Program-made: the position numbers and the translations under genes
Sequence record: OR844650
Source: Escherichia phage ECO103 4-12-1
DNA: 64,000 nt
Reading direction: 5' to 3' (one strand)
Shown: piece after piece, positions 18,270 to 18,795 of the stretch
How the letters are laid out: the number at the start of each line of letters is the position of its first letter
Numbering within the stretch: position 1 is the first letter of the stretch
Notes under the pieces: model-generated
What the model saw: only the letters and a program-made list of their open reading frames with translations
Told to the model about the DNA's origin: nothing
Database searches by the model: none

Positions 18270-18795
18270 TTTTAATATTGACGGGATTTGAGGAAGGGAT
18301 TTTTCTTCCCCCCACAAGGAGGGAAATTTGACGCTGATGGTATCAGAGCTATTGCATTGAAGATTACTCATAACGAGTGCGAAAGCGGGTCATCCTGTTT
18401 CTCTCTACTTCAGTTTCATATGACGGTCTACACTTTTAAACATAGTGTATCTTCATTAAGTATCTATGCAATCAAATACTTAATGTGAGTACTCAAATTC
18501 TGGACGCAACTTTCCTGTACAAAATTTGATAACTCTCCCTTAGATAATTCGTAAGGTGTTATCCTTATATGTCTATCAAGGAACCACCAGCTATCCTAAC
18601 GTGGTTCTTTATACAGCCGCATTGCCGTGAGGGGTTCAAACTATGCCCACATCTAACGGGTTTCTTTTGCTGTTCGCACTGTCGGACTGCTCAACTGCCC
18701 TCTACGTTTTCGAGTGGTTCAGGTACATGAATATCATGCCAACAGAATTGTACAAGATAATTATATCACAAACTTTTACTTCATCCCATAAAAAA
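18270..18795. other. ORF-poor, locally GC-richer interval; candidate structured non-coding RNA or acquired segment
   Basis: about 520 bp without credible ATG-initiated ORF on either strand, between terminator 18797-18814 and promoter 18237-18265. Confidence 0.3.

Follow-up and report, generated by a model that had tools for sequence, protein, structure and literature searches.

Few large, intricately folded RNA classes are known from bacteria and phages. RNase P, the group I and group II introns and the omega RNAs of IscB have revealed new biochemistry, and OLE, ROOL and GOLLD are still puzzles. Huge phages sometimes encode RNase P RNA or tmRNA. In plasmid and phage replication, ColE1 RNA II is a pre-primer transcript of ~550 nt that must fold for primer formation, and the T4 origins oriF and oriG use middle-promoter transcripts and an R-loop. 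ROOL and GOLLD (RF03087, RF01998) have been reported as RNA-only homo-oligomeric complexes (PMC12286853), and SviR, a short base-pairing sRNA of the PLE satellite, has no homologue in the helper phage (PMC7567579).

The locus discussed here lies in a stretch of 64,000 nt (the window) of Escherichia phage ECO103 4-12-1 (OR844650), an Asteriusvirus (121Q/PBECO4-like) jumbo phage. A first-pass annotation of the window had singled out positions 18270-18795 as a GC-richer gap of about 520 bp lacking ORFs, and had proposed a structured non-coding RNA, an intron remnant or recently acquired DNA as its content. What the interval contains is a non-coding RNA gene that stands by itself on the minus strand and specifies an RNA of ~430-480 nt. 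Taken as a whole, the data are best explained by such a gene whose RNA acts in trans, a reading which we consider somewhat probable on balance. The RNA family matches no known RNA family, and no description of it was found in the literature searched.

In its general character the RNA resembles ROOL and GOLLD, which are free-standing phage or prophage genes for RNAs of several hundred nucleotides with many helices and pseudoknots and without a fixed protein-coding partner. It differs from them in that their covariance models do not match it, in its hosts (Enterobacterales jumbo phages, as opposed to Lactobacillales and rumen and lake samples), and in occurring as 3-5 diverged paralogues per genome and in integrase/CI islands. 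Speculatively, the palindromic loop motifs UGUACA and GAUC would permit kissing contacts. With RNase P RNA and tmRNA it shares the size class, a pseudoknotted core, invariant single-stranded segments, a stable-RNA-type promoter that is shared with a tRNA cluster, and short sequence resemblances seen by eye; unlike them it has neither a tRNA-like domain nor a tag reading frame, and it is present as four paralogues. The origin transcripts of ColE1 and T4 are likewise promoter-driven and untranslated. In keeping with them, the new RNA has a promoter class that precedes DNA-synthesis genes in phage CBB and copies dispersed along the genome; unlike theirs, its fold is far more elaborate and is conserved across genera, and many copies have standard terminators. 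As with SviR, a small integrative island encodes an RNA that is likely active during infection by a specific phage, but in the present case the island RNA is homologous over its full length to an RNA of the phage that is large and structured.

The gap free of coding sequence is in fact 650 bp in length (18173-18822), larger than first described, in the ORF listing as well as in the annotation of phage G17. The next minus-strand ORF begins at 18172, and the sigma-factor ORF, whose 321-aa product is identical in G17 and annotated there as a putative RNA polymerase sigma factor, stops at 18823. Both the terminator of the sigma-factor gene and the promoter-like site before the next genes, which the first-pass annotation had placed at the borders of the interval, are present. 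The elements of the region, in the order in which the minus strand is read, are as follows.

18823..19788, minus strand: sigma-70-family sigma-factor gene, upstream neighbour (321-aa ORF), context outside the RNA
18790..18820, either strand: intrinsic terminator of the sigma-factor transcript, bidirectional (A7-GGTTGGC-TTAT-GCCAACC-T6, read from the sequence)
18760..18788, minus strand: predicted RNA promoter (-35 TGGGAT at 18788-18783, 17-nt spacer, TG at 18768-18767, -10 TATAAT at 18765-18760)
18275..18753, minus strand: structured non-coding RNA gene, indicated by covariation, strand counts and GNRA loops, with its 5′ end placed from the promoter
18265-18237, minus strand: promoter-like site for the next genes (TTGACA-17-TAGAAT, 11/12), context

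The GC content of 18270-18795 is 0.394, and that of the RNA body 0.413, against a window mean of 0.334 (sd 0.030, windows of 526 nt). This places the interval at the 97th percentile and bears out the statement that it is richer in GC than its surroundings. The family profile (nhmmer) finds a single copy in the window, at 18258-18778. The terminator at 18790-18820 is also annotated in phage G17, and in Rfam it gives weak matches to terminator-type sRNAs only. The promoter-like site at 18237-18265 is specific to the locus of this paralogue, being conserved in the syntenic "B" copies only.

The RNA promoter sits between the sigma-gene terminator and the element itself, and its TGnTATAAT element (18768-18760) predicts an RNA start near 18753. 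A -35 motif, a spacer of 16-18 nt and a -10 motif are found upstream of 39 of the 43 family members, 32 of which have the strict consensus TG(A/G)(A/G)A(C/T)-N16-18-TA(A/T)A(A/C)T; the type promoter of the family consists of -35 TG(A/G)(A/G)AC, a 17-nt spacer and TGnTATAAT. The same promoter class has been described for phages CBB and GAP32 and is, in CBB, enriched before DNA-synthesis genes (PMC5259590). The window has further sites of this class, one of which precedes the tRNA cluster (34142-34114). A promoter and terminator scanner run on the window listed neither the RNA promoter, with its non-canonical -35 element, nor the terminator at 18790-18820. The promoter call rests on the sequence itself and the motif found throughout the family, and the terminator call on the sequence itself and the G17 annotation. 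A hairpin followed by U5-7, inserted as a terminator, is present in 17-23 of the 43 copies, about half. The copy in the window lacks a terminator of its own and may therefore read through into the downstream genes. Both transcript ends are predicted, and the 3′ end is uncertain, lying between ~18327 (after box 2) and ~18275 (after box 1).

The secondary structure was derived from an alignment of 32-43 non-redundant relatives. The curated model contains 85 base pairs in 19 helices, three of which are pseudoknot helices. Its parts, all on the minus strand, are given from 5′ to 3′, with the box names of the 3′ tail that are used above.

18695..18722: P1 hairpin, CUG..CC.CUC / GAG.GG..CAG (helix 1; 7/8 pairs change on both sides)
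18676..18690: P2 hairpin (helix 3; 3/4 pairs covary, e.g. UA 14, AU 10, CG 8)
18613..18673: P3 long-range helix, 18673-18669 with 18617-18613 (helices 4-5; 100% paired, 3 pairs covary)
18659-18656 with 18628-18625: P4, enclosed by P3, with the conserved 11-nt loop CAUAGUUUGNA
18622-18620 with 18571-18569: pseudoknot helix X, which crosses P3 and spans P5 (100% paired, 2/3 covary)
18607-18581: P5 hairpin (5/5 pairs covary; helices 6-8, a group that includes X)
18552..18567: small hairpin UAAG/CUUA (helices 9-10)
18487..18535: P6, 18535-18532 with 18490-18487 (helix 11; 4/4 pairs covary)
Within 18487..18535: optional module carried on P6, a 7-bp stem AAUUUUG/CAGAAUU with the conserved 17-nt loop UACAnnAnAGnUnCGUC
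18454..18485: P7, a 10-bp hairpin (helix 12; 10/10 pairs covary, with many G-U and few A-C)
18472-18466 with 18351..18357: PK1, the P7 loop AUUGCAU with AUGCAAU (helix 13; 6/7 pairs covary)
18428..18450: P8 hairpin (helix 14; 3/4 pairs covary)
18424-18420 with 18393-18389: P9/PK2, in the 3′ core (18358..18424), crossing P10 (helix 15; 3 covary)
18412-18408 with 18362-18358: P10 (helix 16; 4 pairs covary)
18405-18401 with 18385-18381: P11 (helix 17; 1 pair covaries)
18378-18376 with 18368-18366: P12 (helix 18; 95.8% paired, 3 covary, GNRA loop in many copies)
18340-18328: 3′ tail box 2, CCAUCAGCGUCAA (invariant columns)
18323-18307: 3′ tail C/G hairpin (helix 19; varies on one side only)
18290-18278: 3′ tail box 1, CAAAUCCCGUCAA, a direct repeat of box 2 (invariant columns)

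Compensatory changes on both sides are found at 58 of the 85 curated pairs. Canonical cells amount to 96.9%, against 79% in shuffled and 38-43% in slid alignments, and the covariation score is 0.52, compared with 0.19 when shuffled (reached by 0 of 500 shuffles) and 0.07-0.09 when slid. Compensatory changes lie well above both kinds of control, as expected of a structured non-coding RNA. RNAalifold, using 32 sequences, predicts 72 pairs and finds compensatory changes at 46, and an independent search over every pair of columns arrives at the same helices and pseudoknots. The folding energy of the single sequence is modestly better than that of shuffled sequences (z = -2.1). In PK1 the seven pairs, taken over 43 sequences, contain two mismatched cells, both at one terminal pair, and helices 15-17 of the 3′ core are 99-100% paired. 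The stem of P4 which closes the CAUAGUUUGNA loop covaries as UGG/CCA, GGG/CCC, AGG/CCU and CGG/CCG. The "several local stem-forming segments" of the first-pass annotation exist, but understate the case, for the whole interval is one fold supported by covariation.

Two further regions and one module deserve separate description. The segment CUAAGGGAG, directly after the UAAG/CUUA hairpin, consists of invariant columns. The UACAnnAnAGnUnCGUC module is present or absent according to paralogue and in some copies is carried on P12 instead of P6; an insert found in either of two helices is reminiscent of the peripheral elements of large ribozymes and ribonucleoproteins. In the 3′ tail, boxes 1 and 2 are direct repeats of CGUCA(A/G) flanking the C6/G6 hairpin, and the terminator insert, where present, sits between box 2 and this hairpin. 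A further 3′-tail helix was not adopted and a P4-like pairing of CCCGUUAG with CUAAGGG, suggested by a resemblance to RNase P seen by eye, was dropped, covariation being absent in both cases.

Comparison with Rfam 15 yielded no family matched by any member, whether in the window (both strands), the island loci described below or eight other members. At the gathering and E thresholds the only matches were to tRNAs at other places in the window and to sequences that resemble terminators. ARAGORN found seven tRNAs and no tmRNA in the window, and cmscan at E<=10 found no tmRNA (RF00023 and relatives) on either strand of 18100-18900. The RNase P models matched neither at the gathering threshold nor at E<=10, nor in the eight other members, and there was no Rfam match to group I or group II introns (RF00028, RF00029/D1-D4). 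The first-pass annotation had seen no match to tmRNA, RNase P RNA or these introns by eye. The models of GOLLD, ROOL, OLE, HEARO and raiA had no match in the window, the island loci or the metagenomic members. With the RNA-seq-supported ncRNA001 and ncRNA002 of the related jumbo phage PA5oct, the family profile gave no significant nhmmer match (best E = 9.4). A 2026 preprint on coevolutionary mining of ncRNAs deals with UG27 arrays, which are unrelated to this family.

Besides the copy in the window the phage genome has three more, and the four are dispersed and diverged paralogues. Phages TH47 and 121Q each possess four copies, those of 121Q at ~90, 193, 248 and 327 kb; in GAP32, BF and Yen9-04 copies are located at ~30, 175, 260 and 337 kb. 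Copy number ranges from 3 to 5 per genome, most often 4-5, with 3 in Munch-like phages. Placement is syntenic in Asteriusvirus, Mimasvirus, Eneladusvirus and related phages, and the paralogue types are conserved and cluster across genera. No gene is consistently adjacent to the RNA in the phage loci. Pattern searches gave 42 matches in IMG/VR and 83 in metagenomes. Most of the scanned pattern matches were confirmed by nhmmer (55 loci in the viral, genome and annotated-phage sets), and in metagenomes nhmmer returned 69 matches, 47 of them full-length. The first IMG/VR pattern additionally matched Bacillus phage G and a contig of 41 kb, by chance as inspection showed. All members found belong either to Rak2-like jumbo phages or to small integrative islands of Enterobacterales; a search of plasmids gave no match. 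The minus strand, the promoter of the RNA between terminator and element, the four paralogues and the copies in bacterial islands had all been absent from the first-pass annotation.

The islands, which carry full-length homologues, occur in Serratia, Silvania, Enterobacter, Buttiauxella and E. coli, with Serratia fonticola GTA-SR07 and E. coli LR-29-1 among the strains. Their common module consists of an integrase, the RNA and a CI-like repressor, with the RNA converging on the repressor gene. A CI/Ner-type switch, a membrane protein (p286) and an LprI-like protein are conserved, and the integrase is swapped between islands. The island copies have a phage-type promoter (-35 TGAAAC). When all island ORFs were compared by tblastn with TH47 and the window, spurious ORFs inside the RNA and one weak DUF4326 match were all that was found. 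The parts of the islands that were inspected contain no recognizable replication genes, and PHROGs and NCBIfam searches of the island proteins revealed no toxin partner. That the RNA is found in jumbo phages and also in islands which have little or nothing else in common with them suggests that the two interact by way of RNA.

Several other readings of the interval need to be weighed. That it codes for small proteins, is what remains of an intron, or is junk DNA of recent acquisition is hardly credible. Some GenBank records do annotate three or four hypothetical proteins across the locus, and its GC content is above that of the surroundings. It is also true that the earlier statement of "no credible ATG-initiated ORF" holds with a caveat, since ATG ORFs of 53 aa (18569-18730, plus strand), 72 aa (18643-18861, plus strand) and 39 aa (18252-18371, minus strand) exist, besides a TTG ORF of 66 aa (18288-18488). 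Conservation was checked for two of these frames: the 66-aa frame is intact in 2 of 43 homologues and the 53-aa frame in 4 of 43. No conserved ORF was found, indels in the alignment do not keep a reading frame, and compensatory changes are pervasive; most likely the annotated hypothetical proteins are spurious. As regards an intron, the element, with a terminator on one side and a promoter on the other, is a free-standing transcription unit with its own promoter, interrupts no ORF and has no group I or group II signature in Rfam on either strand, so that this proposal is not supported. Recent acquisition finds no support either, given the syntenic positions in Asteriusvirus, Mimasvirus, Eneladusvirus and their relatives and paralogue types that cluster across genera. 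Of the three contents first proposed, the structured RNA is the one with strong support: it shows covariation, has a promoter to itself and is conserved from one phage genus to another. A functional plus strand, antisense to the flanking genes, is very improbable. It was prompted by the tmRNA resemblances UUGACGGGAUUUG and AAAUUCUGGACGC; RNAalifold gives the strands much the same energy (-134 vs -142 kcal/mol), a plus-strand structure prediction counts 370 G-U against 77 A-C, although this count is biased by the prediction itself, and the bidirectional terminator could end a plus-strand RNA. Within the covarying pairs, however, G-U occurs 84 times and A-C 11 times when the minus strand is read, GNRA hairpin loops (GUAA, GAAA, GCAA, GAGA) are seen solely in that reading, the 10-bp P7 forms properly on the minus strand only, and a conserved promoter, found in 39 of 43 copies on the minus strand, is not seen on the plus strand. 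We assign the RNA to the minus strand on the pair counts, the loops and the promoter, and reject a tmRNA-like reading of the plus strand on the same grounds together with the negative ARAGORN and Rfam results.

Different roles can also be imagined for the minus-strand RNA. It might be a cis-acting replication-origin transcript, in which a persistent RNA-DNA hybrid of the folded RNA, or its processing near the 3′ tail, primes the leading strand for a T4-like replisome. Islands that have no replication genes would, by virtue of their copy, be replicated by an infecting jumbo phage. This is consistent with four to five dispersed copies at positions conserved between genera, with the promoter class that CBB places before DNA-synthesis genes, with the iteron-like arrangement of the CGUCA(A/G) repeats around the C6/G6 hairpin, and with islands whose inspected parts lack recognizable replication genes and which have only the RNA and the weak DUF4326 match in common with the phage. 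We nevertheless regard it as unlikely: a fold with three pseudoknots and long invariant single strands exceeds the needs of any known origin transcript, many copies end in a standard terminator, all are oriented like the surrounding genes, and Munch-like phages have only three. Neither the cumulative GC skew nor the ORF strand bias of the whole TH47 genome shows an inflection at the copies; the skew simply tracks the direction of transcription and is uninformative for T4-like phages. Alternatively, jumbo phages and integrative islands could be in conflict, with the RNA as a weapon or as a decoy. Either the island RNA is the antitoxin or regulator of an island defence, captured and multiplied by phages to neutralise it, or it is a dominant-negative mimic of the phage RNA. 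Phages are known to escape ToxIN by RNA mimicry (pseudo-ToxI), the RNA is the only element confidently common to phages and islands, and the islands combine a conserved module of CI/Ner-type switch, p286 and LprI-like protein, and a swapped integrase, with the phage-type TGAAAC promoter. But that four paralogue types are kept in synteny by several phage genera has the look of a core phage function, not of accessory counter-defence. The RNA antitoxins known to us are short tandem repeats, and self-comparison reveals no internal direct repeats here; for that reason, and for want of a consistent protein neighbour in the phages, a type III (ToxI-like) antitoxin was rejected, and with no toxin partner found we judge this conflict reading distinctly unlikely. 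A role in cis, with the RNA as an extended and folded 5′ leader regulating the minus-strand genes that follow, is quite improbable. Such a leader might be a very large sensor of the riboswitch kind whose expression platform is a terminator, or it might bring about processive antitermination as HK022 put does. At the window, CBB, GAP32, BF and XbC2 loci the genes after the RNA are indeed on its strand, a hairpin and U-run directly follow the last conserved pairing in about half of the copies, and the presence of several copies in a genome would fit the control of several transcription units. Yet the genes downstream are not the same from copy to copy, in the window a further good promoter intervenes between RNA and next gene, and, to our knowledge, the RNA is several times larger than any aptamer or antiterminator RNA. 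Riboswitch and cis-leader classes were discarded since the RNA faces convergent genes in Munch and converges on the repressor gene in the islands; with convergent genes and a terminator-like hairpin and U-run insert, the Munch RNA is not a leader.

The reading we prefer, that of a trans-acting RNA, would most likely involve an abundant, stable molecule that works through its tertiary fold, be it as the subunit or scaffold of a ribonucleoprotein, as a self-assembling "ornate" RNA like ROOL and GOLLD, or as a ribozyme. Pointers towards action in trans are the convergent genes and terminator-like insert at the Munch locus, the hairpin and U-run in about half of the copies, the promoter class in common with the tRNA cluster of the window, and the module that can occupy either of two helices. 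Several gene copies with strong promoters may supply a high dose of RNA quickly, and peripheral modules that differ between paralogues may tune which partners it binds. Island copies are probably switched on or boosted during infection by such a phage, given that they carry its type of promoter, and their RNA may exploit or interfere with a partner of the phage RNA. The conserved tail (box 2, C/G hairpin and box 1), located downstream of the optional terminator, does not fit a simple trans-RNA model. Copies that are dispersed yet fixed in synteny might instead mean that the role of the RNA is tied to where in the genome it lies.

A bolder version of the trans-acting RNA, which we offer tentatively and think rather unlikely as a whole, is that of a new class of large, multi-pseudoknotted RNAs that is core to the Rak2-like jumbo phages, the copy in the islands serving to hijack or poison the phage. 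The phage RNA would then be an essential ribonucleoprotein, ribozyme or self-assembling RNA built from four to five specialised paralogues, and the transcription machinery of the infecting phage would turn on the mimic RNA of the island through the copied promoter, an interaction at the level of RNA that would be of the satellite or defence type.

The comparative support for this new RNA family is unusually strong. A covariance model of the family would correct the most probably spurious protein annotations that several GenBank records have at the locus. Since the family is present in cultured, genetically tractable E. coli phages (121Q, PBECO4, phAPEC6, G17 and others) as well as on an E. coli chromosome, its function is directly testable.

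The window is 99.5-99.8% identical (BLAST) to Escherichia phages 121Q and PBECO4, which are Asteriusvirus jumbo myoviruses of approximately 350 kb and relatives of Rak2. All genes near the RNA interval are oriented on the minus strand. Its boundaries are marked by the following:

18823-19788, minus strand: sigma-70-family sigma factor gene of the phage, 321 aa (ORF and annotation)
18790-18820, end of the sigma gene: terminator A7-GGTTGGC-TTAT-GCCAACC-T6 (sequence)
18265-18237, minus strand: promoter-like TTGACA-17-TAGAAT (sequence scan)

Both the terminator and the promoter-like site lie where the first-pass annotation had placed them. 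The ORF-free gap that it described is borne out, since the next ORF past the sigma gene begins at 18172, leaving 650 bp between coding genes without a credible gene; the flagged interval is also richer in GC, as claimed (0.394, where the window averages 0.334; 97th percentile among windows of 526 nt). Short ORFs of up to 72 aa exist, and the two frames tested are intact in 2 and 4 of 43 homologues. Three to four "hypothetical proteins" are annotated across the RNA gene in OR699181, OR699182, PQ390715, PP886230, PQ330092 and other records; as these ORFs are not conserved, the annotations are probably artefacts. The sigma-gene terminator (18791-18820) resembles hairpins at 307-337, 5206-5239, 6286-6313 and 11288-11318 (77-82% identity over approximately 30 nt), a set repeated through the window. 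In phage G17 (locus L001, 2775-3794), the homologues of window genes 17963-18172 and 17703-17885 are separated by two additional genes, one HNH endonuclease-like, and the window (~17886-17962) lacks both. The difference is an insertion/deletion polymorphism involving a mobile endonuclease, immediately downstream of the RNA locus.

Folding energies are similar in total for the two strands, and the G-U richness of the predicted plus-strand structure reflects the predictor's own choice of pairs. Among pairs with at least two Watson-Crick types, the minus reading gives 84 G-U versus 11 A-C, with approximately 40 G-U pairs in the stem of helix P7 alone. The variable hairpins have GNRA loops (GAAA, GUAA, GCAA, GAGA) on the minus strand only, and a minus-strand promoter is found just upstream in 39 of the 43 non-redundant copies, from phages and islands alike. 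Because these three lines are independent, we regard the functional strand as settled, on comparative grounds, as minus; the plus-strand reading is essentially excluded by the same observations.

The family promoter consists of a -35 element TG(A/G)(A/G)AC, a 17-nt spacer and a -10 element TATAAT (TATACT in the island version), usually with TG upstream of the -10. In the window, this motif is represented by:

18788-18783, minus strand: TGGGAT
18768-18767, minus strand: TG
18765-18760, minus strand: TATAAT

This position puts the predicted transcript start near 18753, directly past the sigma-gene terminator. The paper on the jumbo phage CBB names the same promoter class "divergent RpoD-like" (-35 TGAAACG), found also in phage GAP32 and enriched ahead of DNA-synthesis genes (PMC5259590). 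Eight matches to the class occur in the window, versus approximately 3.6 expected from shuffles; further instances, of the form TGGGAC/TGAAAT-N17-TGnTATAAT, are:

34114-34142, minus strand: directly upstream of the tRNA cluster
8539-8567, minus strand
60745-60773, minus strand
62329-62357, minus strand

The tRNA cluster (31069-34895, minus strand) contains seven genes according to ARAGORN (Thr, Asn, Met, Ser, Arg, Ser, Gly), six of which are called by Rfam. Two of the tRNAs, a putative Met(CAT) and a putative Ser with anticodon ACT, are unusually long at 90-92 nt.

Compensatory substitutions are pervasive across the alignments. RNAalifold, applied to 32 sequences in the minus orientation, predicted 72 pairs with both-side changes in 46, and an unbiased scan of all column pairs (covarying stacks of three or more pairs that are canonical in 88% of sequences or more) returned the same helices together with three that cross. 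By pair count, the curated structure holds 85 pairs in 19 helices. Canonical cells make up 96.9%, versus 79.2% after shuffling and 38-43% with the 3' partners slid along by 1-3 columns; there are 474 compensatory cells versus 132 shuffled, and the covariation score is 0.52 versus 0.19 shuffled (0 of 500 shuffles reach 0.52) and 0.07-0.09 slid. The first-pass annotation had proposed a covariation check against homologous phages: 58 of the 85 pairs change on both sides, versus 41 shuffled and 17-26 slid. Its suggestion of a structured non-coding RNA was thus right, given these compensatory changes and the conserved minus-strand promoter, while its alternative of an intron remnant is essentially excluded, as are coding and junk-DNA readings of the interval. 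Two of the pseudoknot helices are conspicuous:

18472-18466 with 18357-18351, minus strand: pseudoknot helix PK1, the first segment being in the loop of the 10-bp P7 hairpin
18424-18420 with 18393-18389, minus strand: helix P9, pairing with the P11 loop and crossing P10

PK1 comprises seven pairs, with only two mismatched cells among 43 sequences. A modular element, in which a 7-bp stem carries the conserved 17-nt loop UACAAUAUAGAUCCGUC, is present, absent or shifted between helices P6 and P12 depending on the paralogue, a mobility that resembles that of peripheral elements in large ribozymes and ribonucleoproteins. The core carries long invariant single-stranded segments.

Just 3' of the last conserved pairing, 17-23 of the 43 copies have a perfect hairpin followed by U5-7, which implies an RNA of approximately 430-470 nt. 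The insert is missing from the window copy, where transcription may hence continue towards the TTGACA/TAGAAT promoter and the 18172 gene. Conserved columns define one further feature:

18278-18340, minus strand: invariant 3' tail, made up of box 2, a C/G hairpin and box 1

The two boxes are direct repeats of CGUCA(A/G); the C/G hairpin and the second box are conserved downstream of the optional terminator of other copies. This tail is accounted for by none of the models considered. A T4-late-promoter-like TATAAAT motif comes after box 1 in several copies, the window copy having only a weak version.

The RNA core (~18272-18723) retains approximately 70% identity in phage genomes of distant genera (BLAST), among them phages infecting Serratia, Erwinia, Pectobacterium, Cronobacter, Yersinia, Salmonella, Klebsiella and Xanthomonas, with three to five matching places per genome. 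The unannotated genome of phage TH47, as assembled here, carries four, all in the same orientation, at 49, 146, 262 and 346 kb; 121Q likewise has four, at ~90 (the window copy), 193, 248 and 327 kb, and the window itself contains one. Scanning public collections with the degenerate pattern AAGCGGGTNNNNCNGTTTCTNNCTA, derived from the most conserved block, gave 42 loci in IMG/VR, 13 in bacterial genomes and 83 in metagenomes, most of them confirmed by nhmmer as full-length homologues. Copies of one paralogue type group together across genera, in preference to copies from one phage (e.g. CBB_1/BF_1/GAP32_1 and GAP32_2/CBB_2/BF_2/Yen_1), and their genome positions are similar among GAP32, BF and Yen9-04, from which we infer that the duplications are old and the paralogues have been maintained separately. 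TH47 (MT446416.1) 146035-146514 is the syntenic "B" copy of window 18270-18760, with nearly identical flanks; across the interior, the two share just 71% identity, the TH47 sequence there being similar to the C copy of its own genome, which suggests gene conversion or replacement between paralogues. A divergent subfamily on metagenome contigs of GC ~0.42 (L108 1008-1540; also L099, L131, L135, L145) keeps the ~520 nt size and the TGnTATAAT promoter, only the 3' half (P8-P12, PK1 and tail) being recognisable in sequence. The L108 copy adjoins a 1366-aa ORF, a context that may represent a different phage type.

Full-length chromosomal homologues occur in Serratia fonticola, a Serratia sp., Silvania hatchlandensis, Enterobacter chinensis, Buttiauxella, other Enterobacteriaceae and two strains of E. 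coli, within small integrative elements. A recurrent module, present in genomes and at least 10 metagenome contigs, runs from an integrase (either a large serine recombinase or a tyrosine recombinase, interchangeable among islands) through the RNA, a CI-like repressor (HTH and S24 peptidase) and a Ner-like protein to a multi-pass membrane protein of 286 aa and an LprI-like protein of the lysozyme-inhibitor family. Regions with the CI/Ner switch are:

L084, 9701-14625
L064, 637-3129
L073, 10072-20416

Past the LprI-like protein come a small serine recombinase and several proteins that are uncharacterised. The RNA of E. coli LR-29-1 lies inside an island of ~10.5 kb adjoining ffs, and in this island the further proteins include dual-OB, DUF488 and DUF4326 types; such island content may be defence or exclusion cargo. 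Compared with TH47 and the window, the island ORFs have no convincing homologue, a DUF4326 domain being the sole non-spurious match, and plasmids gave no match. The island copies form clades of their own, yet have kept a promoter of the phage type in an unchanged place relative to the RNA.

The first-pass annotation had recognised no tmRNA, RNase P RNA or group I/II intron by eye; likewise, the RNA members tested against the 4227 families of Rfam 15 gave no match within the element even at E<=1 to 10, and ARAGORN found no tmRNA. The RNA-seq-defined ncRNAs of phage PA5oct are unrelated, and a full-text literature search found no description of the RNA. The nearest known RNAs are thus analogues in function or architecture, without homology: the phage-associated ornate RNAs ROOL and GOLLD, the origin transcripts ColE1 RNA II and T4 oriF/oriG, and the classical stable RNAs.

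Comparative analysis thus demonstrates a predicted folded-RNA gene on the minus strand, with its own conserved promoter, several paralogues and island homologues. On balance, we think it probable that the RNA would act in trans, as a stable RNA working through its tertiary fold. This is favoured by phage Munch, where genes converge on the RNA, which carries a terminator-like hairpin and U-run of its own, by the promoter class common to the RNA and the tRNA cluster, by the invariant unpaired stretches of the core and by the movement of peripheral modules between helices. No gene is consistently adjacent to the RNA, which also argues for action in trans; the RNA may have a partner from the host, one encoded elsewhere in the phage, or none.

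The main rival, a cis-acting origin or primer RNA, would account for the dispersed, syntenically fixed copies, the promoter-class link to replication genes, the iteron-like 3' tail and the copies in islands without visible replication genes; it leaves the elaborate fold and the terminators unexplained and GC skew gives it no support, so that we consider it unlikely. A decoy or antitoxin in phage-island conflict seems slightly less likely still, and a cis-regulatory leader is the least probable of these. The RNA appears to represent a so far undescribed class, large and pseudoknotted, whose distribution is unusual and whose comparative support is very strong. Since it is present in cultured E. 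coli phages, its function is directly testable.
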